Source of the DNA: Acidimicrobiales bacterium
Lineage (GTDB): Bacteria > Actinomycetota > Acidimicrobiia > Acidimicrobiales > GCA-2861595
NCBI GenBank assembly: GCA_046596195.1
Contig: JBKJNA010000215.1
Coordinates: 1-60,938 of the forward strand
Direction of reading: 5' to 3'
Length of the DNA stretch: 60,938 bases
The translations under genes were made by a program, and so were the position numbers. The first letter of the stretch is position 1, and each line of letters starts with the position of its first letter. Under the pieces are notes generated by a model. That model was not told the origin of the DNA and did not search any database. It worked only from the letters and a program-made list of their open reading frames with translations. This document shows positions 3,547-52,641 of this stretch, one piece after another.

Positions 3547-3551
3547 AGGCG

Positions 3552-9754: not shown

Positions 9755-10026
9755 GCGTCCCCTTTTGTCGAGCCATTCGACTTGCACACAAGAACGAAGC
9801 AAAATTAGGTGCCTGCGACCGCCACGCAGCGCCGACGAATCGAAGACCGCCGCTTCGGACCGGTCCTTTGACGCCGTGAGCGCGTCACCCCATCTATTCG
9901 CGATGTACCGATAGAAACATACTGGTCCCCACTGCGACCGACAAGGGTCAAAGCGTCGAGATCAAGGTCCGAAATTGACACGGTTCACCCTCGCCGTGGC
10001 ATTTTCACGCGCCATCATGTCCCTTG

Positions 10027-13225: not shown

Positions 13226-13259
13226 GACAACCGCTGTATCGCCGCCGGGGCGGCATAGA

Positions 13260-15230: not shown

Positions 15231-15355
15231 GGAGCTGCGCCCTCGTCCCGTCAAAATGTCCCCCTCGCGTGCTCGCGGGCGCGCCGGCCACACGAGCAAG
15301 TAGTTGATGAGGCCTTTATACTAACGCAGCCATGCCCGAAACGGGGAAAGATCAC

Positions 15356-15478
15356 GTGACCGCCACCAACGGGTCCGAATGGGAGCTGGTGGCCGAGACA
15401 ATCCAGGTTCTTGCCGCCGATGAGGGGGGGAGCCGTGATCCCCGGGAGCGGCCGGCACCTCATCCGCACGGGCACTGA
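15356..15478 (+). CDS. Candidate small peptide upstream of lanB (possible leader or precursor)
   Basis: GTG after GGGGAAAG; 40 aa VTATNGSEWELVAETIQVLAADEGGSRDPRERPAPHPHGH; same strand as lanB and 69 bp upstream of it. It is below the ORF-track cutoff. Confidence 0.3.
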   Translation: MTATNGSEWELVAETIQVLAADEGGSRDPRERPAPHPHGH

Positions 15479-15547
15479 CCTGATTCACCGCCCGAGGACG
15501 CGCCTCCCCGGCGCCGCTGCGCCCGGTACCCCCGACCCACGAAGGCT

Positions 15548-18500
15548 GTGACTCCGCAGCTCTCGCCGTCGGGATTCTTCGTCCTGCGCACACCGCTTCT
15601 CCCGTACGAGGAGCTGGCGGCATGGGGCGACGGCCTGTCGCGCGCGGGGGGTGGCGACATCTCCGACCGGCAACTTGCCGCCGACCGCACACGACTTCGG
15701 CGCCGCCTCCAGGCCCTCGTCCAGCGTCCGGACGTGCGCGAGGCGCTGTTCCTCGGCTCGCCCGACCTGGAGGGCTCGCTGGATGTCTGGCTCCGGGACC
15801 CCGACTCCGAACGCGGGACCGGGATAGAGCGGGCCTTGGTGAGGTACCTGGTACGCATGGCATCGCGGCCCACCCCATTCGGGTTGTTCGCCGGCGTGTC
15901 ATCGGGCCGCATCGGCCAACGCACCACGCTCACCGTCGACGGGCGGGACCGCTACCGGCGCCACACGCGCGTTGACACCTCCTGCCTCGTCGCCCTGGCA
16001 CGCGACGTCGCCACCGCTCCCGGTGCCGAGCGCCATCTCGCCCTCGTGCCGAACCCCCTTCTCTACCGTTGGGCGGGCGGTTTCCGCTGGGCCCGGTCGT
16101 GCTCGGGCGCAGCAGGGGGCAAGGCCCTGATGGCCCTGCCCGGCACAGCCCTCCTGCGCTCCGCCCTGGCGCTGGCCGCGGGCGGCACGACGGCTGAACA
16201 GCTCGCGGCCGCACTTGCTGCGGGCGGCGGACCGGCGGAGCGTGCCCACCGGTTCGTCGACGAGCTGGTCGCACTCGAGGTGCTCGTACCCGCTCTCGGC
16301 GTCGTCGTCACGGGACGCGAGCCGATCGAGGCGCTCGTCGAACAGCTCGAAGCGTCGGCGCCCACCAGTGACGCGACGCGGCGCCTCCGGGGTGTCGCCG
16401 ACGGGCTGGCCGAACTCGACGGGGCAGGCTTGGGTGCAGCGCCCGAGCGCTATCACCGGTTGGCCCGCATGCTGGCCGAGGCGGGTGCCGCTGGTTCGGC
16501 GGGGATGTTCCACGTCGACCTGGTCAAGGCAGGCGAGGGCGCGACGTTGGGTGGCCAGGTGCTCGACGAGATCCGCCGCGGAGTGGCGCTGCTGCACCGC
16601 ATCTCGCGTCCCAGGCCGCCCGGCGACCTCGACCGCTTCCGGGACGCGTTCGAGCGGAGGTACGAGGGCCGGGAGGTCCCGCTGCTGGAGGCACTGGATG
16701 GTGACGCGGGCGTGGGGTTCGGTCCGTCGGTGTCGTCCGCGCCACTGCTCACCGGGCTGACCTTTCCAGCGGTCGGCGCCGGGGTCACCACCACGCACGC
16801 GGACGAGCTCCTGCTCGCGCGCCTGCTCTCGGCCGCCGGGGGGAAGGAGACGGAGGTCGTCCTGGACGGCGCCGACGTCGACGCCATGGCGACCGGGGCG
16901 GCCGACGTCCCGCTCCCCGGCGCCTTTGCCGTTCTCGCCTCCGTCGAGGCAGCCGGCCAGGAGGCGTTGGACCGTGGAGATTTCCGCGTCTTCGTCCGGG
17001 CCATGGGAGGTCCGTCGGGAGCGTGGCTCCTCGGACGCTTCTGCCACGCCGACGCCACCATCCGCGCCCACGTCGAGGACCACCTGAGGTCAGAGGAGGC
17101 ACAGGACGGCGGAGCGGTGTGGGCCGAGGTCGCCCACCTGCCGGACGGCGCGTATGCCAACGTGGTGGTGCGGCCGGTCCTGCGACCGTACGAGATCCCG
17201 TGCTTCGGGAGGTCCGGCGCCCCGGACGACCGCCAGCTGGCGTTGGACGACCTCCTGGTGTCACTCGTCGGCGGTCGGGTGGTGCTGCGATCGCGCCGGC
17301 TGGGACGGCGGGTGATCCCGAGGATCACGACGGCCCACGACTTCGCCCGCCCGGGGCCGCCCGCGTACCGGTTCCTGGCGGCACTCCAGGTGCAGGGCGT
17401 CACCGCCGGGCTGACGTGGACCTGGGGAGCGCTGACGAGTGCCCCGTTCCTGCCCCGCGTTCGCCACGGCAGGGTGGTCCTGTCCCTCGCCCGCTGGAAC
17501 ATCAGCCGTGCCGAACTGGGCCTGCTGCGCGGCCTCAGCGCAGCGGACCTCGTCCGCCATCTCCACCGGTGGCGGTCGCAGCGGGGGATCCCGCGCCTGG
17601 TGTCGCTGGCCGACGGAGATGCGACCCTGCTCGTCGACTTCGAGAACGTGCTGTCGGCCGAGTCCTTCGCCCACCTCGTCAGAGGTCGTGACCACGCCGT
17701 GGTCGAGGAGGTCTTCCCTTCACCGGACCGGTTGTGCGCCACCGGGCCCGACGGGTCGTTCCTGCACGAGCTGGTCGTCCCCTTCCTCTCCTCGTCGCCC
17801 CCACCTTCGGACAGTGCGCGACCGGAGGTGGCCGCGTCCGTGCGCAGGAGCTTTCCACCGGGCTCGGATTGGGTCTCGGCCAAGCTCTACGCCGGCCCGT
17901 CCACGGTGGACGGGCTCCTGCGAGACGTCATCGAGCCGCTCAGGCGGGAGCTGCTGGGGTCGGGCCGGGCCGACGGCTGGTTCTTCGTGCGCTACGGCGA
18001 TCCGAACTGGCACCTGCGGGCTCGGTTCCACGCCGGACCGGCGGGCGACGGGCGGCAGCTCCTCGACGGGATCTCCGGCGCCCTCGCCGTCGCCCTCGAC
18101 TCCGGCCGGGTCTGGCGGCTCCAGCTCGACACGTACGAGCGGGAGGTCGAGCGGTACGGCGGCGCCCAGGGCATGGCGCTGGCCGAGGAGATGTTCGCCG
18201 TCGACAGCGACGCCGTGATGGAGCTGCTGCACCGGATCCCCAAGGGTGATGCAGGCGCCGAGGACCGCTGGATGATAGCGATGCGAGGGGTCGACCAGCT
18301 GCTCGACGACCTCGGGCTGCTTGGCGCCGGCAAGCTGGCGGTCCTGAAGCGAGGCCGGGACATCTACGCCAGGGAGCACCGGGTCGACGGGAGGCTGGAG
18401 GAGCAGCTCAGCCGGCGCTTCCGCACGAATCGCCCCGCCCTGGAGGCCCTCCTCGAGCCGGCGGCCACACCAGTTGGCGCCCTCGGGGCGTGTGTCCAGG

Positions 18501-18730
18501 CCCTGCGCGAGCGGTCGCTGCGCATTGCCCCGCTGGCCGCCGCCCTGAGAGCCCTGGAGCGAGAGGGCGAGCTGAGCTGCAGCGTGGAGGACCTGGCCAC
18601 CAGCTACGTCCACCTCCACCTCAACCGGGTGCTCGCATCGGCGCACCGGGCCCAGGAGCTGGTGGTGTACGACTCCCTCCTGCGGCTCCACCGGTCGCGC
18701 ACCGCCCGGCAGCGGCCGGCCGAGCGCTAG
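15548..18730 (+). CDS. lanB: Full-length class I lanthipeptide-type dehydratase (glutamylation plus elimination domains)
   Basis: Motifs FVLRTPLLP, YLVRMASRPTPFGLFAG, GPSGAWLLGRF, FLPRV, WVSAKLY, WFFVRYGDP.WHLRARF, YEREVERYGG and SYVHLHLNR. Confidence 0.93.
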   Translation: MTPQLSPSGFFVLRTPLLPYEELAAWGDGLSRAGGGDISDRQLAADRTRLRRRLQALVQRPDVREALFLGSPDLEGSLDVWLRDPDSERGTGIERALVRYLVRMASRPTPFGLFAGVSSGRIGQRTTLTVDGRDRYRRHTRVDTSCLVALARDVATAPGAERHLALVPNPLLYRWAGGFRWARSCSGAAGGKALMALPGTALLRSALALAAGGTTAEQLAAALAAGGGPAERAHRFVDELVALEVLVPALGVVVTGREPIEALVEQLEASAPTSDATRRLRGVADGLAELDGAGLGAAPERYHRLARMLAEAGAAGSAGMFHVDLVKAGEGATLGGQVLDEIRRGVALLHRISRPRPPGDLDRFRDAFERRYEGREVPLLEALDGDAGVGFGPSVSSAPLLTGLTFPAVGAGVTTTHADELLLARLLSAAGGKETEVVLDGADVDAMATGAADVPLPGAFAVLASVEAAGQEALDRGDFRVFVRAMGGPSGAWLLGRFCHADATIRAHVEDHLRSEEAQDGGAVWAEVAHLPDGAYANVVVRPVLRPYEIPCFGRSGAPDDRQLALDDLLVSLVGGRVVLRSRRLGRRVIPRITTAHDFARPGPPAYRFLAALQVQGVTAGLTWTWGALTSAPFLPRVRHGRVVLSLARWNISRAELGLLRGLSAADLVRHLHRWRSQRGIPRLVSLADGDATLLVDFENVLSAESFAHLVRGRDHAVVEEVFPSPDRLCATGPDGSFLHELVVPFLSSSPPPSDSARPEVAASVRRSFPPGSDWVSAKLYAGPSTVDGLLRDVIEPLRRELLGSGRADGWFFVRYGDPNWHLRARFHAGPAGDGRQLLDGISGALAVALDSGRVWRLQLDTYEREVERYGGAQGMALAEEMFAVDSDAVMELLHRIPKGDAGAEDRWMIAMRGVDQLLDDLGLLGAGKLAVLKRGRDIYAREHRVDGRLEEQLSRRFRTNRPALEALLEPAATPVGALGACVQALRERSLRIAPLAAALRALEREGELSCSVEDLATSYVHLHLNRVLASAHRAQELVVYDSLLRLHRSRTARQRPAER

Positions 18731-18765
18731 CGAGGACGGTCGATGCCGGGAACGGGGCGCCGCTA

Positions 18766-19899
18766 CTACGACCCGAGAACGGCCTCGGGCTGGAGGGCGT
18801 CGCAGGCCGGACAGGCAGGCACCGGCAAGAGCGCCTCGCGGCGCACCTGCGACGTGCGAAGGTCGGCGACCAACACACCGCCGGTGGACACCGGGTTCTG
18901 AAAGCGGCCGACGCTGCGGAGCGCCTCCATGGAGACGAGGCCGGCCACAAGCGAGGCGAAGCCGGCCAGGAGCCCGGGCTCGGGGGCGATGCCGCCCTCG
19001 CCGAGCCATTGCTGGTAGGCGACATGCTCGTCGTAGTGGCGTATGTGTGACAGCCGGCGCTCGACCAGGCACTCGTGGCACCCGGGCGTGCCCGGCGTGA
19101 CACATGGCCCGACCACAGCGTCAAGCGCAGTTACCGAATGGAACAGGGAGACAACCCCCGCCGCCATGCACGCCCGGTTCGCCAGCGAAGCGGCCGCCCC
19201 GACCTCGTCGACCTCCACCACGACCAGGTCGACGTCGGTGGCGATCGACCCGACAGGATCGGTCGTAGAGCGCACGGCCGGGCGTGGCCGACGGCCGGGA
19301 CGCACGGCCACGCATTCCTCGGCCGTCACCTCGGACCTCGGTCTCCCCAGGTCGGACGGCACACCGGGCACGGCCCACTGGTCGCCCGGCGTGACCGCTG
19401 CCGCGTCCGCCAGGACCAACTCGCCGATGCCTGCTGCCGCCAGCTGGCGCGCCGCCAGCCGGCCCACCGGACCGAGCCCCACCACGGCCACGCGCGCCGC
19501 CGTGGTGGCCACCCGCACGGCAACGGGGCTGCGGCCCAGCTCGCTGACGACCTCATCGGTCGGCCCGCCGGCCCTACCCGCCGGCCAGCCAAACTCCTTG
19601 CCGTCTGCATCGGCGCCGTCCGATACGACGCCCTGGGAGTAGAGGTGTGCGATCAGGTCGGTCGCCGGTCCGGGCTCCAATTCCATGCGATCCACGAGGT
19701 CGGCCAGACTGCAGCCACCTTCGAGAGCGCCCAGCAGGCGCGGGCCGAAGTCGCCCACGCCGGGCCCGCCGACGCGCAGCACCCGCCCCGCGCTGCGCAG
19801 CTGGAGCATATCGGGGCCCATCGGGATGACACGGAAGAAGCCCGGCAGCATCGGCCGGGCCGGGATGGGGGCGACATCGTCTCCGCCGCCGGCCGTCAC
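18766..19899 (-). CDS. E1/ThiF-like leader-binding partner of YcaO (TOMM C protein) with an N-terminal RRE-like domain
   Basis: N-terminal winged-helix-like segment, VAVVGLGPVG, GCHECL and a C-terminal CPAC. Start overlaps the cupin stop (GTGA). Confidence 0.85.
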   Translation of the reverse strand: MTAGGGDDVAPIPARPMLPGFFRVIPMGPDMLQLRSAGRVLRVGGPGVGDFGPRLLGALEGGCSLADLVDRMELEPGPATDLIAHLYSQGVVSDGADADGKEFGWPAGRAGGPTDEVVSELGRSPVAVRVATTAARVAVVGLGPVGRLAARQLAAAGIGELVLADAAAVTPGDQWAVPGVPSDLGRPRSEVTAEECVAVRPGRRPRPAVRSTTDPVGSIATDVDLVVVEVDEVGAAASLANRACMAAGVVSLFHSVTALDAVVGPCVTPGTPGCHECLVERRLSHIRHYDEHVAYQQWLGEGGIAPEPGLLAGFASLVAGLVSMEALRSVGRFQNPVSTGGVLVADLRTSQVRREALLPVPACPACDALQPEAVLGS

Positions 19900-20501
19900 C
19901 GGCGGCCCGGGGCGGAGTCATAGGCGAGCGGCCCCGTGCCACGAGGTGCGTAGCCGGGGGGGAGGTAGAGGTTGAAACCCTCGGCCAACGGGTCGTCGGC
20001 GAACAGGTGGATGCACACAGACCACTCCAGGCCGGCGTTGGCGACGGCGTGGATGTCGGCCGGCGGCGGCCGGATCGGCATGACGTCCCCGGGGGCGTGC
20101 ACCACCCGTGCCACCTCGACGAGCATCGGCTCCCCTGGCAACAGCTGCGACGACGGCTCGTACCTGGTCTCCTCCTCCGTCCCCCGGTACACCCCGACGA
20201 CGCCCCAGCTGCCGTGGTCGTGGGCGGGCAACGAGAGGCCCGGCGCCGTGATGGTGGTGAAGACGGAAAAGTCCGGACCGGAGTGCAGGAGGTGCTTGCC
20301 GAACCCCGTCGCCGGGCGATCGGATGCAACGGCCTCGGGCAGCAGGTCCGGATCGGCGAGGGCGGCTGCGAGTACGGGGCACAGCGCCTCCGGCACCCCG
20401 TAGTCGCCGCTCCCCCGCTGCGCGGCCAGCACCCCGGCCACGGCACCGAAGAGGTGCTCGAGGCCGGGGGTGCTCGCTGTCTGCATGCTGACGGTCGCCA
20501 C
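19896..20501 (-). CDS. Cysteine dioxygenase-like cupin
   Basis: HDHGSWGVVGVYRGTEEETRY...DIHAVAN...IHLF, a 3-His CDO-type pattern. Confidence 0.82.
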   Translation of the reverse strand: MATVSMQTASTPGLEHLFGAVAGVLAAQRGSGDYGVPEALCPVLAAALADPDLLPEAVASDRPATGFGKHLLHSGPDFSVFTTITAPGLSLPAHDHGSWGVVGVYRGTEEETRYEPSSQLLPGEPMLVEVARVVHAPGDVMPIRPPPADIHAVANAGLEWSVCIHLFADDPLAEGFNLYLPPGYAPRGTGPLAYDSAPGRR

Positions 20502-20512
20502 GTGCGTGTTAC

Positions 20513-21721
20513 CTAAACGCCCGGACGGAACAACTCGGTGGTCGCAGTGGTGAAGTACCCGCTCGGCCCTGCCGAGAAGCCACCCACGATGAGCAGGTCA
20601 CCGGCGGTGAGGGTCACCAGCTGGGCGTCGTCGCGAACTCTGCTCATGGACTGGGTGAAGGACCAGGTGCCGGTGGCCGGGTTGTAGATCTCGGCTGTGG
20701 CCGACAGGCCCCCACCGGCCATCAGGAACCGGCCGTCGGCCAGCATCTGTGAGGATCCCTCGACCCTTGGCAGGTTCATGGCGCCGGTGTAGGACCAGGT
20801 GCCGGTGTTGACGTGGTAGATCTCGGCGGTCGAACTCGTGCAGGCATCGGGCATCGGCGGAGAGACGTTCCCGCCGGGGCAGTGGCCACCGGCCACGATG
20901 ACGTCGCCGGACGCGAGCAGGCCCGCGCTCTGGAGGAATCGCGGCTCGTGCATCGAACCGGTCTCCGTCCACACGCCCGTTGCCGGGTCGTAGATCTCGG
21001 CCGAGGCGCTCACCGCCTCGGTTGGAGCGCCGACCTGGGACTGGCGACCGCCCGTGACCAGCACGCGCCCGTCGGCCAGTGTGGTGGCGCTGTGGCCCCA
21101 GCGCGGGTGGTTCATGGGAGCGACCCCAACCCACTTCCCGCCGTGCGCCGAATCGAAGATCTCGGCGGTGGCCTGGCTGGCGCCGGTGCAGCCGATCCCA
21201 CCGGCCAGCAGGACCTGGCCACCGGCGAGCAGGGAGGCCGTGGCGCTCACCCGGCAGGTGCTCATGGGCTTGGCGGACCGCCACTTCCCGTTCTTCGGGT
21301 TGTACACCTCTGCCGTCGCCGTGATGGGGGCGTTCCTGCCGGCGACGCCGCCGGCGGCCAGCACGTTGCCGTTGGGCAGCGTGACGAGCGCGTGCGCGTA
21401 CCGGGCCTCGCTCATGCTGCCGGTGGCCGACCAGGTCCCGGTCGCCGGGTCGTACAACTCTGCGGCGGCCACGTAGTACTTCGCATCGAGGCTGAAGATG
21501 CCGTCGAAGGCGTTGTACCCGCCGGCGACCAACACCTGCCCGCTCTGCAGGAGGGTCGCTACGGCACCGAGGCCAGCGCCACCCCCCTCTCGAGCCACCG
21601 CCATGCTGCCCGTCGGGCCCCACGACCCTCCAGTGTCGGCTGATGCCGGGAGCCCGGCGCTCCCGGTGAGCGCCACCGCCGCCACCACCGCCACCCGCGC
21701 CACAGTCGTCCTGATCTTCAC
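20513..21721 (-). CDS. Secreted Kelch-repeat protein
   Basis: GTG after an AAGGGGA SD; signal peptide; about 7 repeats of R..H.ATLL.DG.VL.AGG...AE.YDP.TG.W...GSM. Confidence 0.88.
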   Translation of the reverse strand: MKIRTTVARVAVVAAVALTGSAGLPASADTGGSWGPTGSMAVAREGGGAGLGAVATLLQSGQVLVAGGYNAFDGIFSLDAKYYVAAAELYDPATGTWSATGSMSEARYAHALVTLPNGNVLAAGGVAGRNAPITATAEVYNPKNGKWRSAKPMSTCRVSATASLLAGGQVLLAGGIGCTGASQATAEIFDSAHGGKWVGVAPMNHPRWGHSATTLADGRVLVTGGRQSQVGAPTEAVSASAEIYDPATGVWTETGSMHEPRFLQSAGLLASGDVIVAGGHCPGGNVSPPMPDACTSSTAEIYHVNTGTWSYTGAMNLPRVEGSSQMLADGRFLMAGGGLSATAEIYNPATGTWSFTQSMSRVRDDAQLVTLTAGDLLIVGGFSAGPSGYFTTATTELFRPGV

Positions 21722-21743
21722 AGTGTCCCCTTTGCAGTTGGTT

Positions 21744-22637
21744 TCAAGGCCCGGCATTGCTGCCGGAGCCCGGTCGCGACGCCAGCCCACCGGGCGACGA
21801 CGAAACCTCCCCATCGGGAGCCTTGCCCGCCGAGGAATCCCTGACCGAGGCCGAAGACTTCCCGCCGCCTGTCGGCTCCCCCGACATTCGGACCTCAGTA
21901 TGCACGGTGAAGGGCGTCCGCAAAAGGCCTTCTTTGAAATGAACGCCGGAATAGCCTTCGCCGCAGTAACAGCGGAGAATGTCCAGCAGCCGCCCGACCT
22001 TCATCGTCGCACCACGGTCGAGGCGGCGAAGCTCCTCGCAGTCAAGCAGGCTGTGGTATGTCGCCAGATCTTCGTCCTGCGGCGTACCCGAAAGATCACC
22101 CCGCCGTATCCTCGGCCAGCACCCGCGGAACACGTCGAACGCGAGCAGGTCCGCCCTCCTTTCGAGCGCGGGGCCATCGTCGGTGGGCAGCACCGGCATC
22201 TCGGCCTGGGCCACGATGGCACCGGCGTCGACCTCGGCGGTCATCACGTGCACGGACACGCCTGCGGGCGTGCCGTCGATCACCGCCCATTGGAGCGGGT
22301 CCAGCCCACGGTTGTACGGCAGGTACGAACGGTGGACGTTCACCCAGCCCCACCTCGGGAGGTCCAGCACCCGGCGCGGCACGATGGGAGCGAAGCCGCA
22401 GCACACTCCCACGTCCGGGGCGACGGCCTCGAGCTTGCGGTGGGCGACCGCACTGGTGAAGCTGCGGCCGTAGAAGACGAGACCGGGATCGACCCCGGCC
22501 GCATCGGCGATCACCCGGGAATGTGGGCTGGGCGGTGAGTTGAGCCCGAGACCGACGATCTGGTCACCCTGCTCGACGATCAGCTCCACGATCCGTGCGC
22601 CCACGTGCCGGTCGCCACAGAACAGCACCTTGGTCAC
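21744..22637 (-). CDS. N10-formyl-THF-dependent formyltransferase (Fmt-like N-terminal domain)
   Basis: Motifs VNVHRSYLPYNRG, GVSVH and VDAGAI. Start overlaps the peptidase stop (GTGA). Confidence 0.88.
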   Translation of the reverse strand: MTKVLFCGDRHVGARIVELIVEQGDQIVGLGLNSPPSPHSRVIADAAGVDPGLVFYGRSFTSAVAHRKLEAVAPDVGVCCGFAPIVPRRVLDLPRWGWVNVHRSYLPYNRGLDPLQWAVIDGTPAGVSVHVMTAEVDAGAIVAQAEMPVLPTDDGPALERRADLLAFDVFRGCWPRIRRGDLSGTPQDEDLATYHSLLDCEELRRLDRGATMKVGRLLDILRCYCGEGYSGVHFKEGLLRTPFTVHTEVRMSGEPTGGGKSSASVRDSSAGKAPDGEVSSSPGGLASRPGSGSNAGP

Positions 22638-23389
22638 CGTGCGTGCGCCACGATGGCCAGGGAACGATCGCGGAGGCGGCGCTCCTCCTCGGTCAGTGGC
22701 GCGCCCAGGGTTGCCAGCCAGCCCTCCTCGACCGAGGCTGCGTCAGCGCCCGTCGGCATCGCCCGCCCGGAACGGAACGCTTGCCAGAACTCGGCTTCTC
22801 CGAGCCGCTCGAACAGGTGCCCCGTGAACGAGGCGGCGTGCAGGTACTGCACCGCGCGGGACCTGACCGAATCGCGATGCTCGCTCACCGGGCGTGCGCC
22901 TGCCATCGCGGTCAGGTCGGCCAGCGAGATGCGCCAGCCCTCCTCCCGGAAGACCTCCATCCAGCGGTGGGGGCTCAGGTGGTAGAAGGGCCATGCCGGC
23001 CCGGCCAGGCGGAGCCGGCCGTCCACGTGCACCGCCAGGCCCTCGTTGAGCACCGGGTCCGGCGAACGCCCGGCAACGGCGTGGACGAGCTCGTGCGCCA
23101 ACCCGGCCAGCACGCCGTGGCCGTCGCCGTTCACCGGCAGCACGACGTGCGAACCCCTGGTCCGCGCCACCCCGCTACCGCCGTAGACGGTCACCACGAC
23201 CGGATCGGGCGCCACCGAAAGGAAGGCGGCGATGCGAGCCACCCACGCCTCCGCCCGCTGCTCGACCGCCGGCACCACGTCAGCGAGGACGCCGGCCGAC
23301 GGTTGGCCACCTTCCCCGGGCACGTAACCCACGGAGCAGACGACCGCCGCTACAGCCCCGTGCTCGCCCGCCTCCTCGTCGGCGCTCAT
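22634..23389 (-). CDS. Cytoplasmic HExxH zinc metallopeptidase (gluzincin/MA-like)
   Basis: LAHELVHAV followed by LNEGLA; no signal peptide; ATG overlaps the YcaO stop (ATGA at 23389-23386). Confidence 0.75.
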   Translation of the reverse strand: MSADEEAGEHGAVAAVVCSVGYVPGEGGQPSAGVLADVVPAVEQRAEAWVARIAAFLSVAPDPVVVTVYGGSGVARTRGSHVVLPVNGDGHGVLAGLAHELVHAVAGRSPDPVLNEGLAVHVDGRLRLAGPAWPFYHLSPHRWMEVFREEGWRISLADLTAMAGARPVSEHRDSVRSRAVQYLHAASFTGHLFERLGEAEFWQAFRSGRAMPTGADAASVEEGWLATLGAPLTEEERRLRDRSLAIVAHAR

Positions 23390-24762
23390 GACATCGGGCA
23401 CGGCAACCGGTTGAGGTCCTCCTCAGCCAGGTGGGGCCATCCCAGGGTAGATGCCATCGTCCGAATGCGCTCCGACCCCAGGTGCGGGTAACGGGCGTCA
23501 CCGTGGATGTCGACGGCGCCGGGGGCGAAGACCTTTACCGTCCGAAAGCCGCACCTCGCCGCATCCGAGCTGGTGAGCTCGGTGACGAGCGCCTCGAGCC
23601 CCACTCCCCCGAGCCGGCTGACGCAGGCATCGAGGTCGCCCCGCGTGGTCCCGGTGCTCAGGTTCGCGAGGGCGCCGAGCGCGACCTCCTCCTCCGACGC
23701 GGCCAGGAAGGCGGCCCGGCCGCCGCCTTCGGCGCCGGCGTAGTAGTGGGCATTGTCCCACAGGGTGCGGATCTCGGCCTGCGGGAACGACGACCGGCTG
23801 TCCCAGGCCAGCCCGTGGAAGCCGGCCAGGAGCTGGGCCGTCTCGAACAGCGCCTTGCGCGCCGCCTCAGCGGGATCGAGCCGGCTCGCCGCGCCCATTA
23901 CCAGGGACGGGCGATCCTCGCTGTCACTCATGGCAAGGCAGGCGATGGTGGGGATCCCGGAGTCCGGCGTCATGTCCAGCAGCACGAACTTGAAGTCGGG
24001 GAGCGAGAAGTGGGCCTCGATGAGACCGGCCACACCGTCAGCCGCCCCTGGCTGCGGGACCACCCGTCGCGGCGTCCGGTGGTGCAGCCAGTGGATCATC
24101 AAGGCGTCGCGCTCGACGACCTCGTAGAGCCCGGCGAGGACAGCCGCGTCCATGGAGACGTGGGCTGCCAAGCCTGTGCTCATCACCCACCGGGTGAAGT
24201 TGTTCGGTGGTTGCAATCCCACGGACGGATGCACGAGCGCAGCGGGGACGAGTGCGTAGCAGCGCCGGCTCAGCGACCATGCCCACGCCCAGTCGATGGC
24301 CTCGGAGCTGGCCCGACGTGTGACTCCTGGTGTGGTCGCGTACTGCCGGTCGGAGAGGAGGCCGAACCGCCTGAGGGGCACGGCCCACGCCGAGACGTCG
24401 TCCTCCGACGCCCGCAGGATCGTCGACCGGTCATGGGCGAGTGCGAAGCAGTACCGTTCGATCGCCTCGGCTACTGCCTTCAACCAGGCCAACTCCGGGT
24501 CCTCGGCGACACCCATGCCGATGATGTCGAAACCGTGGTCGTGGTCACCGACGCCGCGTCTCGGCCCCCTCGCCACGTACACCGGAAGGGTGGGAAGTCC
24601 GGGGGCGGTGGCGAAGCTGCGACATCGCGAGACGATGCCATACGGACCGGCCGCGGCCCGGGCGGCGACCATCGCCCGTTCCAGGGGACCGGGCCCGGGC
24701 GTGCCGAGGTTGAACCCCAGGTATTCGGGCCTCAGATGCGCCGGAAGGTCAACACTGCGCAT
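23386..24762 (-). CDS. YcaO-family cyclodehydratase
   Basis: ATP-binding motifs AEAIERY, STGLAAH and LYEVVERDA; Pro-containing C-terminus LNRLPCPMS, like azoline-forming YcaOs. Confidence 0.93.
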   Translation of the reverse strand: MRSVDLPAHLRPEYLGFNLGTPGPGPLERAMVAARAAAGPYGIVSRCRSFATAPGLPTLPVYVARGPRRGVGDHDHGFDIIGMGVAEDPELAWLKAVAEAIERYCFALAHDRSTILRASEDDVSAWAVPLRRFGLLSDRQYATTPGVTRRASSEAIDWAWAWSLSRRCYALVPAALVHPSVGLQPPNNFTRWVMSTGLAAHVSMDAAVLAGLYEVVERDALMIHWLHHRTPRRVVPQPGAADGVAGLIEAHFSLPDFKFVLLDMTPDSGIPTIACLAMSDSEDRPSLVMGAASRLDPAEAARKALFETAQLLAGFHGLAWDSRSSFPQAEIRTLWDNAHYYAGAEGGGRAAFLAASEEEVALGALANLSTGTTRGDLDACVSRLGGVGLEALVTELTSSDAARCGFRTVKVFAPGAVDIHGDARYPHLGSERIRTMASTLGWPHLAEEDLNRLPCPMS

Positions 24763-24920
24763 GGGCCCTGCACTCCAAGGATGTAGCGAACCGGCTCAAC
24801 GGGGTGCTCACTGCAAGTGCTTCGGAGGTCTGCATCGGCCAGCAAGGTACTTCCTGCGCTGACGCCGCCAACCGTCGGGTCTGCGACCGGGGTGCCGGCA
24901 CGGCCCGCCGTTCTCACGAC

Positions 24921-24940
24921 GGGAACCGTGCACGGTCCCC
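24921..24940 (-). terminator. Stem-loop just downstream of the precursor gene
   Basis: GGGAACCGTG/CACGGTCCCC near-palindrome with one mismatch, 14 nt past the precursor stop. Confidence 0.45.
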
Positions 24941-24954
24941 CAGCTAGAGCAGTG

Positions 24955-25317
24955 TCAGTCGCTGCTCGCCATAGCGGTCATGGTCGAGTTGGTGGTGGTG
25001 CAGAAGCTGACGTCGTCGGCATCCCACTCGGCCTCGTCGAGCGACGTGACCTGCATGGCCGTCATCGTCGAGTTGGTCGTGGTGCAGAAGCTGACATCGT
25101 CGGCATCCCACTCGGCCTCGTCGAGCGACGCGACCTGCATGGCCGTCATTGTCGAGTTGGTCGTCGTACAGAAGCTGACGTCGTCGGCATCCCACTCCGC
25201 CTCGTCGAGCGACGCTACCTGCATGGCCGTCATTGTCGAGTTGGTCGTCGTGCAGAAGCTGACATCGTCGGCATCCCACTCGGACTCGTCCAGGAACCAC
25301 GTATTGATGGCACCCAT
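24955..25317 (-). CDS. Multi-core RiPP precursor peptide (120 aa, four cassettes)
   Basis: ATG at 25317 after AGAAGGAGGT; MGAINTWF then four copies of LDE(S/A)EWDADDVSFCTTTNSTMTAM(QVAS/QVAS/QVTS/ASSD); lies between the dehydrogenase and YcaO genes. Confidence 0.9.
   Translation of the reverse strand: MGAINTWFLDESEWDADDVSFCTTTNSTMTAMQVASLDEAEWDADDVSFCTTTNSTMTAMQVASLDEAEWDADDVSFCTTTNSTMTAMQVTSLDEAEWDADDVSFCTTTNSTMTAMASSD
24958..25293 (-). repeat. Four tandem 84-bp coding repeats (precursor cassettes)
   Basis: GCATCCCACTC recurs every 84 bp; differences between copies are mostly at synonymous positions. Confidence 0.97.
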
Positions 25318-25465
25318 GCCACCACCTCCTTCTGGTCGGTACGGATTCGACCACATCGGGCCGCACCATGCAAGCCTTTCCTGCTGAACTCTTACAAAAT
25401 CGGAGGCTATGTGTCTACCACACCTAGAATGAGCCCTACTGTGAGTAGGAGTCACCCCCAAACGG

Positions 25466-26932
25466 TCACTTCGGGTGTTGATCCCCACCCGAAGACACGG
25501 ACGGTCTCGAGCCGACGAGGAACTCGCCGACGCTCGTCTCCTCGTAGTAGTTCAGCCCCGCCAACGCGGCGAAGGCATCGGAGTCGCCCCCACCCACCGC
25601 ACACGGCGCAAGGCCCATGGCGGTGGCCACCAGGTACATCGTCTGGTAGAGGACGCCGACGTTCTTCAGGATCGTGGCGTACGGGATGGCCTCGTACTTG
25701 AACATCACCTTTCCGAAGCGGGCGGTGACGGCCAGGAGCACCTGGGGCCGATCGCGCATGCCCGTCTTGGCGCACGTCTGCTGGAGCAGGGACTCGATGC
25801 CCGGGTTCAGCCCCGCCGTCACCACGCCGAGCTGATGGCGCACCGGGTCGTAGTGGTAGAGGCCGGGGTCGAGGCCGTCGCAATGGCGCACCACAGGGTA
25901 GAGCTCCAGCTCGTACAGGGCTCCCCCGGTGGGGTACGGCCGGGCCATGCCGAGCGGCCGTGGGCTGCCGTCGGAGAAGGTGGTGACCTCGTGGCGGACG
26001 CCGGCGCTGCGGTAGAGGAACTCGCCGAGCTGCCCGACAGTGATGGGGGCGTCGTCGTCCTGCAGCCGCCGCGACTGTCGCCCTTCGAGCACGGTCGTGA
26101 ACGACGGGTCGCAAGAGGCGAGGGCGCTGATGTCGGGTCGCCGTAGGTGGACGACCTCGGTGGCGGGCGGGTCGACCAGCGGCAGCGGCGGAAAGCGGTC
26201 CCGGAGCGGCCACGTCGCGCCGTAGCCGTTGGCATGGCGTCCCTGGCGGCTGCGGGAATGGAAGAACAGGTCAGGGAGGCTCCACTGCGCCAGGGCCATG
26301 GTGGAGTCCTCCTCGTCGCCGTCGGCGCCCACCAGCAGCGTGACGTCGACCAGCAGGGCGGCGAGCGCGGTAAGGACCTCCGCAGGAAGGCCGAGCCCGG
26401 CGGCGAGGTCGGCCACGCGCGCCGGTCGGGCGAGCGACGCGACGAAGGCCGCCACCCGGGCGTCGTGCAGGACGGCCAGGGCGGAGGAGCGTGGCGACTC
26501 GAGCACCATCTCGCCCCCGGCCCTGTGCAGCAAGGCGAACCGGGACAGGACGACGGCGCCGTCGGCGACAGAAGCCGGCGAGGCATGAGCCATCCTCGCG
26601 ACCAGTGGCTTCACCGTGACCAGTGGCACGCCGTGGAAACGGAGCTCGCGCTGGATCCAACCCCGCTCGTCGAGCCGATCGAGCACCGACGCCAGCAGCG
26701 AGGCCGCGGCGGCGTCGCCGGGCGGCGCTGCGGCCCGCAGCTGCGCCTCCGGCGCTCCCGTCCCGAGCAGGATCTCCAGCGGGGCGCTCAGCTCGTCCAC
26801 GAGCGGGCCCAATGCAAACCGCTTGGAGCCACGCGACAGCAGCAGGCGGCCGTCCGTGCCCATCTCTGCGGTGGCGTCGTCACGCAGGCGCAGTGACGCC
26901 TCTAGCCCCGCCTCCCCCTCAGTGGCAACCAC
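25466..26932 (-). CDS. ThcOx/SagB-type FMN-dependent azoline dehydrogenase with N-terminal RRE-like domains
   Basis: Motifs VLSRFA...MVLESP, DLFFHSRSRQGRH, RQSRR, PYPTGGALYELELY and catalytic KY (MFKY); GAGGAGG SD. Confidence 0.92.
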   Translation of the reverse strand: MVATEGEAGLEASLRLRDDATAEMGTDGRLLLSRGSKRFALGPLVDELSAPLEILLGTGAPEAQLRAAAPPGDAAAASLLASVLDRLDERGWIQRELRFHGVPLVTVKPLVARMAHASPASVADGAVVLSRFALLHRAGGEMVLESPRSSALAVLHDARVAAFVASLARPARVADLAAGLGLPAEVLTALAALLVDVTLLVGADGDEEDSTMALAQWSLPDLFFHSRSRQGRHANGYGATWPLRDRFPPLPLVDPPATEVVHLRRPDISALASCDPSFTTVLEGRQSRRLQDDDAPITVGQLGEFLYRSAGVRHEVTTFSDGSPRPLGMARPYPTGGALYELELYPVVRHCDGLDPGLYHYDPVRHQLGVVTAGLNPGIESLLQQTCAKTGMRDRPQVLLAVTARFGKVMFKYEAIPYATILKNVGVLYQTMYLVATAMGLAPCAVGGGDSDAFAALAGLNYYEETSVGEFLVGSRPSVSSGGDQHPK

Positions 26933-26998
26933 GGCTGTGCCCTCCTCCTCGCGGCGCGCCGGACCCCGGACGCCCGAAACCCGGTCATGGTACCCGGC

Positions 26999-28180
26999 TC
27001 AGGCCGGCAGGAGATCGGCGCCGTTGGCCACGAAGAACCGCTCGGCCACGTGCCCACCGAGCGGCGCCAGCGATGCGTGGAAGGCGTCCACCGGGCTCAC
27101 GCCGCCCTCCAGGTGCGGGTAGTCCGTCGAGAAGGCGTAGACCTCCTCGAACCCGCTCTGCTCGATCCACGTTCCGACCGGCTCGAACTCGAAGGGGGTG
27201 ACGCGCACCTGGCGGCGCACGTACTCCGACGGCTTGAGCGCCAATTGGCGCGAGAGGTACCCGGACGTGGTGGTGGCCAGGTTGTCCATACGGTCACACC
27301 AGGACGCCACCCAGCTGGCGCCCGACTCGATGACGCCGAACCGCAGGCCGGGATGGCGTTCGAACACGCCGCCGAGCACCATGAAGGTCAGGGTCAGCTC
27401 GGCGAAGAGGTGGGTGGTCATCCAGAAGAAGGGGCGGGCGTGGAAGTCATCGGCGCTCGGGTCCGACGGCGGTGGCCGAAGGCTCCATGCGGCCTGGTAC
27501 CAACTCGGCTCCAGGAGCGTGGGGGCCCCTCCACTGCCGCCGTAATGGAGAAGCGCCGGCACTCCGGCCTCCGACAGCATGGCCCACAGCGGCTCCCACT
27601 CCGGGGCGGCCGGGGAAAGGCCTCCCGGCGGCCGGATGGCGGAGAAGTGGATCCCCCCGGCGCCCTTCTCCAGGGCCCTTTTCGCCTCGCCGAGGGCCAC
27701 GGTGACGTCGTAGGTGTTGAGCAGGCATACCGGCACGACCCGGTCGTCGACGCCCTTGGCCCAGTTGAGCACGTAGTCGTTGTAGCGCGCGACAGCGGCC
27801 GCCCCCTCCGGGCAGTCGGCGTTGAGCGGCGGCTCCATGTACTGCGAGAACACGAGCTGGCGACCGATGCCCATCTGGTCGAGGGCATCCACCCGGTCAG
27901 CAGCCACCTGCGCTCCGTGTGCCCCCCACAGCCGCACGTTCCACACGTCGGAACGGGCCTTCCTGCGACGGGCCAGCAGCGCCTCGCCCTCCCCGGACGG
28001 GTTCAGCCCGTCCGCCAGGATCATCTCCCGAACCTCGTCTACCAACGACCCGCCGCCCCCGCGGCCCGGCCATGGCCCGCCACCCGGCCCGGCGCCGAGG
28101 ATCTCCTCCACGTCGGGCAGGTAGAGCATCAGGTGCGCGTCGAGGTCGACCATGCGGCCCTGTAGGTCGTCCGGCATCAT
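26999..28180 (-). CDS. Amidohydrolase_2-family metal-dependent hydrolase or decarboxylase
   Basis: Motifs DLDAH, LLHYG, GVFERHPGLRFGVIESG and FSTDYPH. Confidence 0.88.
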   Translation of the reverse strand: MMPDDLQGRMVDLDAHLMLYLPDVEEILGAGPGGGPWPGRGGGGSLVDEVREMILADGLNPSGEGEALLARRRKARSDVWNVRLWGAHGAQVAADRVDALDQMGIGRQLVFSQYMEPPLNADCPEGAAAVARYNDYVLNWAKGVDDRVVPVCLLNTYDVTVALGEAKRALEKGAGGIHFSAIRPPGGLSPAAPEWEPLWAMLSEAGVPALLHYGGSGGAPTLLEPSWYQAAWSLRPPPSDPSADDFHARPFFWMTTHLFAELTLTFMVLGGVFERHPGLRFGVIESGASWVASWCDRMDNLATTTSGYLSRQLALKPSEYVRRQVRVTPFEFEPVGTWIEQSGFEEVYAFSTDYPHLEGGVSPVDAFHASLAPLGGHVAERFFVANGADLLPA

Positions 28181-28228
28181 GCGATGTCACCCCCTGCGCG
28201 CCACAGCACGCATACGTCGTGGCGGGCG

Positions 28229-28257
28229 AGCGTAAGGACCGCCCGCCCACCCGTCAA
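28229..28257 (-). promoter_or_regulatory. Housekeeping sigma70-type promoter for the RiPP operon
   Basis: Minus strand TTGACG (28257-28252), 17-nt spacer, TACGCT (28234-28229), about 50 bp upstream of the amidohydrolase start. Confidence 0.6.
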
Positions 28258-28403
28258 GGACCGTCAGCGCGTCCCGTCACGATGCCTCGCGATCCGCTGA
28301 CCCAGTTCTTCGTGCCTGCCCAGGCGCGGGCGTGCCCCGCCCTGCCCAGGAAAGACAGAGAGGGGCGCGAACCGCCCAAACGGGATGCTGTGCTGCTCGT
28401 GGG

Positions 28404-29504
28404 CTACTTGGTCGTGTCCTTGTCGTGGAGGATGGCGTTGAAGTAGCTCACGCAGTCGCCCTGGTTCTTGAAGCTCGGGCTCGAGTAGGTCTTGTACTGG
28501 CCGTTCTTGCAGGCGTCCTTGGTGGCCGGCCCCGGCGGGACGACCGGCGCAGCCGTGCCCCAGTCCGGCCGGACGTCGGCCCCGCTGGAGTTGGTGAGGT
28601 TCACCTGGTTGGCGCCGGTTGCCGCGTCCATCCTCCACAGGTCCTGGTCGCTGTTGCGGTTGGCGTCCCACACGATGTACTGCCCGTCGGGCGAGAACGC
28701 GCCGAAGGAGTCGAACTCCGGGCTGTTGGTGATGTTCACCGGGTTGGTGCCGTCGGCGTTCATGGTGAAGATGTCGAACTGGCCGAACGTCGTCCCGTCG
28801 GGCAGCGCGTTGTTCCACACGATCTTCTGGCAGTCGGGCGACCAACCGGGGGCGCTGTCGAGCAGCGTGTCGTTGGTGAGGCGCGTCAGGTTCGTGCCGG
28901 TCACGGAGATGGTGTAGATCTCGAAACCATTCGCGCCCAGCGCCACGTTGTCCATGTTGGAGTTGAACACGATCGTGCCTGCCGTGGAGGTCCCACAGAC
29001 GTAGGGGGCGGAGCCCGAACCGGCGCCGGTGAGGTTCACCGGGCTGGTGCCGTCGGCGTTCATGATCCACACGTCGCCGGCGGCGGAGAAGACGATCTTG
29101 AGCCCGTCGGAGGTGAAGCTCGGGCCATTGGTGCCGCCGGTGAAGGTAATCTGGACCTGCCCGGTGCCGTCGGCGTTCATCACCCAGACGTTGCCGGCCC
29201 TCACGAAGACGATCTTCGACCCGTCAGGCGACCAGGCCGGATCCGTCTCGCCCAGCGTCGGCGTGTTGGTCAAGTTGGTCTGCGCCGTGCCGTCGGGGTT
29301 CATGACGTAGATCTCGCCGTTGCCGTCGCGGGTGCTGGCAAAGGCGATGAGCCCGTTGGGCCCCGGTACGACGGCCTCTGCCGGCCCCGTCAGCATCGCC
29401 GCCGATACGGCAAGCGAAGCCCCTCCGACGAAGAGACGCTTCGCGAGCCCGCTCGTCGCGCGCGTTGAAGTCGCGCGCGTTGAAGCTGTGGAGTGGTCGG
29501 TCAA
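28404..29504 (-). CDS. Secreted TolB-like PD40 beta-propeller with a C-terminal Cys-pair motif
   Basis: P.WSPDG.KI.F...EIY.MN.DGT repeats; C-terminal CKNG...FKNQGDCVSYF. Confidence 0.85.
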   Translation of the reverse strand: MTDHSTASTRATSTRATSGLAKRLFVGGASLAVSAAMLTGPAEAVVPGPNGLIAFASTRDGNGEIYVMNPDGTAQTNLTNTPTLGETDPAWSPDGSKIVFVRAGNVWVMNADGTGQVQITFTGGTNGPSFTSDGLKIVFSAAGDVWIMNADGTSPVNLTGAGSGSAPYVCGTSTAGTIVFNSNMDNVALGANGFEIYTISVTGTNLTRLTNDTLLDSAPGWSPDCQKIVWNNALPDGTTFGQFDIFTMNADGTNPVNITNSPEFDSFGAFSPDGQYIVWDANRNSDQDLWRMDAATGANQVNLTNSSGADVRPDWGTAAPVVPPGPATKDACKNGQYKTYSSPSFKNQGDCVSYFNAILHDKDTTK

Positions 29505-29762
29505 GGTCTCGCTCCCCCATTGCCATTATCCGTCGGGCGAAGGTCGCCCACATGACTCGGCCCACCATTCGGACCGCCTAGCGAACGTAGCGAGGCGCCG
29601 CCCATGATGCAATGCATGCAGTTCGCACCTACCGCCGAGGACAGACCCCGCAAGGGTTCATGCGAATCCAGGCGAATCCAGGCGAATTGGCTTGACTGGC
29701 ACAGAGAGGCGCGCAACACTCCAAGTGGTTTGCCGAACCGGCGCACCCCGTTGGCGAACTCA

Positions 29763-29811
29763 TGAAGAACCGGCCGCCGGTTAAGTCCCTTTCCCGGCGG
29801 CCGGTTCTTCA
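29763..29811 (-). terminator. Intrinsic terminator-like hairpin
   Basis: Perfect 18-bp inverted repeat TGAAGAACCGGCCGCCGG / CCGGCGGCCGGTTCTTCA with a 13-nt loop, 2 bp after the SBP stop. Confidence 0.75.
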
Positions 29812-29813
29812 GA

Positions 29814-35165: not shown

Positions 35166-35353
35166 GTTCGTTCCTCCTGTCAGTCGAGTACGACGCGCAC
35201 CCCTGCCGTCAGCCGACGAAACCAGCTGATCTGATCGACCACGCTTTCTAATCGCCATGTCAGGCATCGTCAACGAATGACCGGGCCGGGCCGGTGATCG
35301 CCCGGTCAGGTCGGGCGGTGGCGGCTCCCCACGGGGAGCCCGGCCTACATGCC

Positions 35354-43462: not shown

Positions 43463-43667
43463 GAAATCTCCTTTTGCTTGGTAGCTTCCGATCGACTTCC
43501 GCGGTTTCCCCAATTTGTGTCTTCCCTGTACTACCGGCGAAGGGAACCTACCCCGCCGACGGGCGGCGGCACAAGGGGAACATGCTGGCGCTCCCGCTTC
43601 CGTTCCGGTGTGATCGGGGGTCTCAGGCGGACGACGCCGGTTGCGAAATGCACGTCCGCGACCCTGT

Positions 43668-52534: not shown

Positions 52535-52641
52535 ATCCGCCTCTTTCTCATCCCGGGTCGGCCCCGCACGCCGCCGTAGACACGTCGTGCTACCACCATC
52601 GCACTGTCCAGAACTGCCGCCCCGCCGCACCCGCGGCCCCG

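Follow-up and report, generated by a model that had tools for sequence, protein, structure and literature searches.

A genus-restricted RiPP gene cluster with a multi-core precursor, probably for linear azole and dehydroamino-acid peptides, in uncultured soil actinobacteria

Results

A RiPP cluster with a multi-core precursor

The window analysed here is a stretch of 60,938 nucleotides, the whole contig JBKJNA010000215.1 (C24) of a metagenome-assembled genome (MAG) of an Acidimicrobiales bacterium (GCA_046596195.1, hereafter G000; 3.74 Mb, 244 contigs, 95% complete, about 70% G+C), and its positions 15548-28257 carry a gene cluster for a peptide that is ribosomally synthesised and then post-translationally modified (a RiPP). 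The cluster is real, uncharacterised and restricted to one genus, and its producers are uncultured soil actinobacteria. We give a probability of roughly 0.6 to the reading that its multi-core precursor is matured into several linear azole and dehydroamino-acid peptides per precursor. The most likely product is an 11-13-residue linear azole peptide, made in several copies; it probably carries dehydrated residues too and may be N-formylated. The direct evidence consists of gene identities, repeat architecture, conservation and co-occurrence, in comparison with three other species of the same genus (G401, G402 and G403) and a soil metagenome contig (L047). The features of the cluster, with lengths in amino acids (aa), are as follows.

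15548-18730, plus strand: lanB, 1060 aa (Lant_dehydr_N E 8.5e-157, Lant_dehydr_C E 9.1e-60)
18766-19899, minus strand: ThiF-like F protein, 377 aa (Pfam ThiF E 4.7e-19; TIGR03882 above cut-off)
19896-20501, minus strand: cupin of the thiol-dioxygenase family, 201 aa, without a Pfam match
20513-21814, minus strand: Kelch beta-propeller protein (Kelch_6 E 1.9e-33, Kelch_1 E 7.7e-32)
21744-22637, minus strand: formyltransferase, 297 aa (Formyl_trans_N E 3e-23)
22634-23389, minus strand: HExxH protein, 251 aa from the ATG at 23389 (full open reading frame to 23401, 255 aa)
23386-24762, minus strand: YcaO, 458 aa (Pfam YcaO E 8.8e-59; TIGR03604 above cut-off)
24886-24944, minus strand: stem-loop 3' of the precursor gene, from folding energy against shuffles
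24955-25317, minus strand: precursor gene, 120 aa, four tandem repeats
25466-26932, minus strand: SagB-type dehydrogenase with ThcOx and nitroreductase domains, 488 aa (TIGR03605 above cut-off)
26999-28180, minus strand: Amidohydro_2 protein, most likely an ARO-type oxygenase, 393 aa (PF04909 E 2.8e-15)
28229-28257, minus strand: promoter-like site (TTGACG, 17 nt, TACGCT), 48 nt upstream of the operon's first ATG

The precursor gene has an AGGAGG ribosome-binding site 7 nt upstream, and its translation begins with MGAINTWF, after which come four 28-residue units. Each of them consists of a recognition stretch LDE(S/A)EWDADDV, a Ser/Thr/Cys-rich core SFCTTTNSTMTAM and a 4-residue spacer, and Tandem Repeats Finder accordingly reported a period of 84 bp with 3.8 copies and 93% matches. 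This multi-core nature is absent from the first-pass annotation, which had been made from the letters of the window alone. At the protein level the core is identical in all four repeats, and 6 of its 13 codons vary between the copies. Because every one of these differences is synonymous, the codon pattern indicates that the core peptide sequence is under selection.

Nine members of the precursor family, with one to four repeats, were collected. LDExEW, V and SFCTT are constant among them and the spacers vary; the residue at core position 11 is Thr, Cys or Ser in every case, with five or more residues after it in all precursor relatives. The repeats were counted as follows.

G000 and G401: 4 repeats, cores identical
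G403: 2 repeats, core SFCTTTNSSMTAM
G402: 2 repeats, core SFCTTGSSSMCVE
L047: 3 repeats, core SFCTTSSSSMC(A/V)E
P0067: 2 repeats
P0068: 2 repeats
P0069: 1 repeat
P0070: fragment

The last four are shorter metagenomic relatives found among 5.8 billion proteins. In a class-level sample the precursor was present in 2 of the 401 genomes, both of this genus, and a search among proteins of 66-210 aa gave no match. A 61-aa open reading frame at 24732-24917 was also considered as precursor and dropped, as it showed neither a family match nor repeats.

Right behind the precursor stop lies a stem-loop of -56 kcal/mol (z = -4.56), and none of 200 shuffles folds as well. It has no U tract and no match to an Rfam family. 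A strong hairpin behind a precursor gene is a common means of keeping the precursor transcript in excess, and this one may likewise raise the precursor-to-enzyme ratio, by terminating transcription in part or by stabilising the mRNA.

Operon layout

Open reading frames, Pfam matches (in 7 of the 10 cluster frames) and an NCBIfam scan of the same frames agreed with the gene content and order of the first-pass annotation, which had described one minus-strand operon converging on lanB. Its three 4-bp overlaps were found again, between the ThiF and cupin genes (19896-19899), between the formyltransferase and HExxH genes (22634-22637) and between the HExxH gene, read from the ATG at 23389, and ycaO. 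So was the 35-bp gap between the convergent stops of lanB (18730) and the ThiF gene (18766). The "good promoter" was upheld in part: TTGACG (28257-28252) and TACGCT (28234-28229), 17 nt apart, are recognisable by eye, but the match is weak. A consensus scan of 24700-28500 for promoters and terminators returned no site of either kind, the promoter-like one being unlisted because its -10 hexamer matches at 3 of 6 positions only. Rfam gave no match in 13000-30000. No exporter was seen among the roughly 40 open reading frames of the window that were scanned, as had been stated before. All ten cluster proteins have collinear orthologues in a second genome at 50-85% identity, and on this comparison the arrangement is not due to chance.

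Azole-forming enzymes

The F protein, YcaO and the SagB-type dehydrogenase all score above the curated NCBIfam cut-offs, which bears out the thiazole/oxazole-modified microcin (TOMM) type of azole machinery claimed for this cluster. The F protein reaches 65 bits (cut-off 36.9) with TIGR03882, "TOMM precursor leader peptide-binding protein", and carries GLGPVG and CxxC...CxxC motifs; it is the predicted leader-binding partner of YcaO, and its N-terminal ~100 residues would form the RiPP recognition element (RRE). YcaO is a discrete D protein with 254 bits (cut-off 219) to the SagD-type model TIGR03604. Among solved structures it is closest to the cyanobactin heterocyclases LynD and TruD (E about 5e-17), with MusD also among the nearest. 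The dehydrogenase, a flavin mononucleotide (FMN) enzyme, combines an N-terminal ThcOx domain (PF22767, E 2.8e-26) with a Nitroreductase match (E 1e-11), reaches 174 bits (cut-off 78) with TIGR03605 and would oxidise azolines to azoles. Hence both marks of linear azol(in)e-containing peptide (LAP)/TOMM clusters are present, namely a YcaO cyclodehydratase with a leader-binding partner and an FMN-dependent azoline dehydrogenase.

LanB and its association with the operon

LanB is full-length, as first annotated, a single protein of 1060 aa that carries both domains. Among solved structures MibB (E 2.2e-44) and MadB (E 2.4e-42; identified from PMC12241602) are nearest, and the split thiopeptide enzyme TbtB follows at E 2.4e-11. 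By these matches the resemblance of LanB is to MibB and MadB, class I lanthipeptide enzymes, and not to the split TbtB. In a predicted complex, LanB residues 1-720 (4-row alignment) and precursor residues 1-62 gave a score of 0.00 against a mark of 0.32, which speaks neither for nor against binding.

The absence of a separate pyridine-synthase-type gene and of LanC, both asserted from the window alone, extends to the window's genome (95% complete). The sole match to PF14028 (Lant_dehydr_C) in G000 lies inside lanB, and no free Lant_dehydr_C outside LanB was detected in G000, G401 or G403. LanC (PF05147) gave no match in the G000 or G401 genomes, and as a positive control it was found in 12 of 201 genomes of the phylum, including the unpublished G001. 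In G402 and G403, weak PF05147 matches (E about 5e-5) lie on other contigs. The 250 nt upstream of lanB hold no LanA-like open reading frame. Two frames upstream of lanB, 15332-15478 and 15411-15551, were rejected as LanA, having no Cys and few Ser/Thr. As neither a LanA-like frame upstream nor a LanC in the genome was found, no other LanB substrate is evident.

A strong LanB (E < 1e-130) occurs in exactly 4 of 22 genomes of the family, a tally that includes the unpublished G404 and G420. All four belong to this genus, and three other family genomes gave weak matches to a smaller protein only. The expected co-occurrence of lanB with the operon in relatives was thus observed in 4/4 genus genomes, with adjacency in 3/4: lanB is adjacent and convergent in G000, G401 and G402, and in G402 sagB has moved between the ThiF gene and lanB. 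We consider it probable that LanB takes part in the pathway.

Further LanB-type fragments were noticed in G402, all on one 339-kb contig (G402:C64:80712-81467, 13291-13689 and 7338-8255). One is a stand-alone Lant_dehydr_C (E 1.7e-18), one a further C-domain match and one a weak match to the N domain. They lie at least 24 kb from the cluster, with two PF14028 matches at 24 kb and more than 40 kb. These fragments may be part of a second LanB-related system.

Distribution

The operon was found in 3/3 other species of the genus and on L047, and in no further genome among those sampled. A YcaO search of a 401-genome sample of the phylum gave nothing above 32% identity, and a collection of contigs from 185,579 species gave one relative at 69%. 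Among 61 relatives, the three other species of the genus matched at 75, 69 and 50% identity, none of the 18 genomes of other genera in the family matched, and two remote matches of about 30% were seen within the order. As for other metagenome loci, L048 (YcaO 38%) has ycaO, an HExxH gene and thiF, with no repeat precursor seen upstream; L052-L103 reach at most 39% YcaO identity; and L049-L051 (27-29%) were rejected as relatives, only generic ThiF or ABC matches being held in common.

The loci of the relatives differ in several details. G402 (L031 7613-8923) and L047 (5406-6827) each have a transposase-like open reading frame of 436-473 aa that separates the oxygenase gene from the precursor, and the two look alike by eye. 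The same gap in L047 also holds a possible 2-oxoglutarate/Fe oxygenase-like frame (2731-4098) and a membrane protein. In G403 the cluster is in pieces (L030 10676-11012, L046 6102-7918 and L045 8687-11950). The operon copy has no precursor, a two-repeat precursor and a second sagB are on an 8-kb contig beside a homologue of the M20/glycosyltransferase region, and lanB is on a third contig. The G403 oxygenase match consists of two pieces that meet at L030 14736, where a frameshift is possible.

Re-annotated and tailoring genes

The gene first called "amidohydrolase" most likely encodes an oxygenase of the ARO family and not a hydrolase. Among solved structures, the 393-aa Amidohydro_2 protein is closest to the diiron monooxygenase PtmU3 (6omp, E 2.2e-23), with DitZ next. 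According to the accessible part of PMC13154177, AROs are defined by an N-terminal D-x-H and a C-terminal D-x-P-H-x-D/E motif on the PF04909 fold, and both motifs are missing from the characterised hydrolases and decarboxylases of that fold described there. Both are present here as D14-A15-H16 and D353-Y-P-H-L-E358, and the L047 orthologue reads DSH and DYPHEE. The protein is most likely, as judged from these motifs, a dinuclear oxygenase of the PtmU3/LynB7 type.

Similarly, the plain label "cupin" gave way to that of a thiol-dioxygenase homologue, given its structure matches and 3-His site. The best PDB matches are cysteine dioxygenase type I (6xb9, E 8.8e-14), 3-mercaptopropionate dioxygenase (3uss, E 2.3e-12) and mercaptosuccinate dioxygenase (8vni, E 8.6e-9). 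H94, H96 and H151 are invariant in 5 orthologues, and in the alignment they match the His residues of HDH and DIH in 6xb9 and 3uss. Thiol dioxygenases of the cysteine and 3-mercaptopropionate (CDO/MDO) type have a Ser-His-Tyr catalytic triad. In the cupin, Phe167 (5/5 orthologues) aligns with the Tyr of ...SIHVY..., and the aligned positions read Cys/Ser-x-His-x-Phe.

For the "peptidase", the zinc-peptidase motif was recovered, and the protein is more exactly a member of a rare HExxH...E family: 1.84 billion proteins yielded 53 representatives at E<=1e-3, and 32 homologues reach E<=1e-10. No Pfam or NCBIfam model matched it above threshold. H99 and E116 are invariant, and E100 and H103 occur in at least 90% of 36 sequences. 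The AF2 model has a pLDDT of 91.4, and its Foldseek matches are weak (best E 4.3e-3, TMq 0.28-0.44, none at E<=0.001), all those listed being M1/M61 aminopeptidases. The protein atlas offered, as a lead, a Peptidase_MA_2 cluster at a score of 0.94. Ten homologues looked up were all metagenomic and none had an informative name, and a profile search of the 401-genome sample of the phylum returned only G000 and one weak match. The protein is a candidate for leader or spacer removal.

In the formyltransferase, Asn100, His102 and Asp137 stand in a VNVH...VDAG context and, by GAR transformylase and Fmt, we take them to be the catalytic triad; the fmt and ArnA-type NCBIfam models scored below their cut-offs. 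The Kelch gene lies between the formyltransferase and cupin genes in 5/5 loci. Its product has a signal-peptide-like stretch VKIRTTVARVAVVAAVALTGSAGLPASA, with a likely true start at 21757 or 21721, and is probably secreted.

Condensation genes in the relatives and the wider neighbourhood

Genes of non-ribosomal peptide synthetases (NRPSs), which the first-pass annotation had missed within the operons of the relatives, were found at several of these loci. In G401, the oxygenase gene and sagB flank a free-standing condensation gene (504 aa, E 5.8e-57), whose stop precedes the sagB ATG by 2 nt. G403 has the same in-operon gene at 58% identity, and there a condensation-adenylation-thiolation (C-A-T) gene immediately precedes the oxygenase gene, on the same strand. 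In G402, a condensation-domain gene adjoins lanB. The window operon itself is without a condensation gene, and the window has the following two features to the left of lanB.

283-3546, minus strand: NRPS adenylation-thiolation-condensation (A-T-C) module, 1087 aa, then a class-III aminotransferase gene at 3552-4913
13260-15299, minus strand: secreted double beta-propeller of the Vgb-lyase family (Vgb_lyase E 7.5e-174), with signal peptide, divergent from lanB

The A-T-C module may be linked to the cluster. It lies with the aminotransferase gene at the very start of the contig, so any further genes are cut off by the contig end.

These genes raise the possibility of a RiPP-NRPS hybrid, in which a condensation domain joins an A-T-loaded unit to the ribosomal core. 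The product would then carry a non-ribosomal acyl or aminoacyl group, or an ester or amide link made by the condensation domain. Such a pathway, which partly overlaps with the one we favour, is suggested by the in-operon and lanB-adjacent genes of the relatives and by the A-T-C gene on the same contig. However, this A-T-C gene is 12 kb from lanB with about eight genes between, its C domain is just 37% identical to the in-operon one, and the visible part of L047 has no NRPS gene. Two neighbouring clusters could also have been co-inherited within one genus, and no case in which an NRPS C domain acts on a RiPP turned up in the literature, though no search was aimed at it. We regard both the hybrid pathway and its hybrid product as unlikely.

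Other neighbours were recorded as well. A Vgb-lyase-family gene adjoins the cluster in G401 and G403 too, and the window has further Vgb_lyase matches at 42470-43759 (E 8.1e-91) and 48605-52729 (E 1.9e-14, mainly NHL-repeat), so that the adjacency of 13260-15299 may be vertical synteny. The contig is unusually rich in large beta-propellers (Vgb-lyase, NHL, Kelch and PD40; 13260-15299, 42470-43759, 48605-52729, 57333-60938, 28404-29504 and 34134-35564), and what can be inferred from the Vgb-lyase-like gene beside lanB is therefore weaker. The M20 peptidase gene at 10717-11955 is syntenic in G403, where it adjoins the precursor. G401 has two ABC-transporter genes (675 and 606 aa; L014 662-4506, plus strand) immediately upstream of the oxygenase gene. 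The corresponding site in the window lacks them, and their best paralogues in G000 have 43-46% identity and lie on contig C217. Further away in the window, 8201-9802 (minus strand), 6 kb left of lanB, encodes a protein with DUF6851 and a vanadium-chloroperoxidase-like helical bundle, and 52642-56013 (minus strand), 24 kb right, encodes a large SARP-type regulator (BTAD and TPR).

Discussion

Role of LanB and product topology

LanB might be a mere neighbour of the operon, acting on another substrate or on none. The operon alone would then yield a purely azole, cyanobactin-like multi-core peptide. lanB, convergent with the operon, is transcribed separately, and in G403 it lies on another contig; YcaO and the ThcOx domain resemble cyanobactin enzymes, and multi-core precursors with each core flanked by its own recognition sequences are typical of cyanobactins. 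On the other hand, lanB is kept in all four genus genomes and is still adjacent after the G402 rearrangement, neither another LanB substrate nor a LanC was found in the window's genome, and the cores appear richer in Ser/Thr than azole formation alone usually uses. We therefore hold this explanation to be quite improbable. A macrocyclic product, be it a pyridine-containing thiopeptide or pyritide, a thioether-bridged lanthipeptide or a head-to-tail cycle, is most improbable: the core starts with Ser and is rich in Ser/Thr/Cys, LanB is present and thioethers can in principle form independently of LanC, but Lant_dehydr_C lies solely inside LanB in G000, G401 and G403, LanC is missing from G000 and G401, the cluster has no PatG-like protease, and LanB is unsplit, unlike in thiopeptide clusters, with TbtB a distant match.

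The reading of several linear azole and dehydroamino-acid peptides from one precursor also has points that weigh against it. lanB is a separate, convergent transcription unit, and in G403 it is on a different contig from the operon; the G403 operon copy lacks the precursor, which is with a second sagB on a third contig. This scattered cluster may reflect rearrangement, duplication or mixed-strain assembly. Moreover, the co-occurrence of lanB with the operon counts as a single evolutionary event, because all carrier genomes belong to one genus. The repeat number of four in the window rests on a short-read MAG assembly. Seven DNA runs of soil metagenomes from three studies, and no RNA run, were found, and among the contigs of the four runs checked none spans the repeat array. 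The cupin is without the Tyr of the Ser-His-Tyr triad, and if Cys3 becomes a thiazole, there is no obvious thiol substrate for it. The role of the formyltransferase is a guess, and a dehydrated Ser1 would leave no N-terminal amine to formylate. It should also be pointed out that the chemistry is here a prediction from the genes.

Proposed pathway

All chemical steps, the core boundaries and the linearity of the product are predictions in what follows. The recognition stretch of each repeat (LDExEW...V) would bring the RRE-bearing F protein and YcaO to the adjacent core, and these mini-leaders probably recruit LanB as well. Azolines would form at Cys3 and position 11, perhaps also at Thr4 or Thr5, and the SagB/ThcOx flavoprotein would convert them to azoles. 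LanB probably turns some of the remaining Ser/Thr into dehydroalanine and dehydrobutyrine. The HExxH...E zinc peptidase, together with other peptidases, of which the M20 peptidase (10717-11955) is a candidate, would excise the 2-4 cores, and the formyltransferase may cap the freed N-terminus. Oxidative tailoring may follow: the dinuclear oxygenase would either hydroxylate the peptide or, like LynB7, convert a C-terminal azoline carboxylate to a terminal azole, and the cupin may oxygenate sulfur.

Two of the conceivable steps would be new for RiPPs. A condensation domain and A-T module would acylate or esterify the core, and a LynB7/BarH-like oxygenase would form a terminal azole at position 11, acting on the azoline-4-carboxylate there after removal of the follower. 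For LynB7, the conversion of a C-terminal thiazoline-4-carboxylate to thiazole is reported in the accessible part of PMC10127204. We put these new steps forward as doubtful, with a low chance of being right.

Comparison with known systems

A "new RiPP class", as the first-pass annotation had it, is not supported, because the logic of goadsporin, that predicted for the coryneazolisins and the chemistry of the dehydrazoles are already on record. In goadsporin and the predicted coryneazolisins, azoles occur together with LanB-type dehydration, and both LanC and a [4+2] enzyme are absent. Goadsporin of Streptomyces, as the accessible parts of PMC4603692 and PMC5303826 describe it, is a linear azole peptide with dehydroalanines whose cluster has no LanC and no [4+2] enzyme; like the present cluster as predicted, it relies on a YcaO-type cyclodehydratase with an FMN dehydrogenase, LanB-type dehydration and an N-terminal acyl cap. 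In goadsporin LanB is split, the cyclodehydratase is fused, the cap is N-acetyl and there is one core, whereas in our cluster LanB is full-length, the F protein and YcaO are discrete, a formyltransferase is present and the precursor is multi-core; the ARO oxygenase, the thiol-dioxygenase-like cupin and the Kelch protein come in addition. No acetyltransferase domain was found in the 10 cluster proteins, which include the formyltransferase instead.

The coryneazolisins, known from prediction only, combine TOMM and lanthipeptide-like dehydratases without a [4+2] protein and are predicted to be non-macrocyclic. Two YcaO proteins are present in them, their dehydratases are classed with the split type, and the accessible part of the source describes neither a multi-core precursor nor oxygenases (PMC4603692). 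Dehydrazoles such as carnazolamide are linear hypermodified peptides with azoles and dehydrated Ser, and according to the accessible part of PMC10676384 they use a DUF4135 LanM-like dehydratase that needs core azoles, in contrast to the glutamyl-tRNA-type LanB seen here. DUF4135 gave no Pfam match in the cluster.

Cyanobactins (patellamide, trunkamide and lyngbya-type) share with the cluster a multi-core precursor with a recognition sequence per core, a ThcOx-type oxidase domain and the nearest YcaO structures. Unlike them, the cluster has no PatA/PatG subtilisin-type protease or macrocyclase among its 10 proteins, its YcaO is unfused, and LanB is present. Thiopeptides and pyritides share the F protein, YcaO, the dehydrogenase and LanB chemistry on a Ser/Thr/Cys-rich core; the cluster differs in having no separate pyridine-synthase-type domain, a full-length class-I-like LanB and a multi-core precursor. 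With class I lanthipeptides LanB is shared, but LanC was not found in G000. Meanwhile, LynB7/BarH and PtmU3 belong to the same fold family as the cluster ARO and have both signature motifs. The last motif residue of the cluster ARO is Glu as in PtmU3, and Asp in LynB7; known AROs act on small molecules, coenzyme A (CoA) esters or products of NRPSs and polyketide synthases (PKSs).

What is new here is the multi-core precursor, the full-length LanB, the oxygenases, the formyltransferase and the in-operon condensation genes of the relatives, a combination that is absent from goadsporin, the coryneazolisins and the dehydrazoles as compared by their descriptions. A literature search for YcaO, RiPP or LanB with a formyltransferase, cysteine dioxygenase or multiple cores found no such cluster, most subscription journals and MIBiG being outside its scope. 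The searches that paired a formyltransferase or a cysteine dioxygenase with RiPPs gave none either; they did not include the ARO in a RiPP setting.

Implications

As the producers are uncultured soil actinobacteria, the compound is reachable by heterologous expression only. The in-operon condensation domain of the relatives makes a RiPP-NRPS link testable, and the invariant SFCTT together with the natural core variants provides ready substrates for how a short recognition stretch directs several enzymes. If our reading is true, this genus would have a multi-core precursor processed by both azole-forming and LanB machinery, of which the literature searched holds no case. Three enzyme types, namely an ARO, a thiol-dioxygenase-like cupin and a formyltransferase dedicated to it, would likewise become part of a RiPP pathway.

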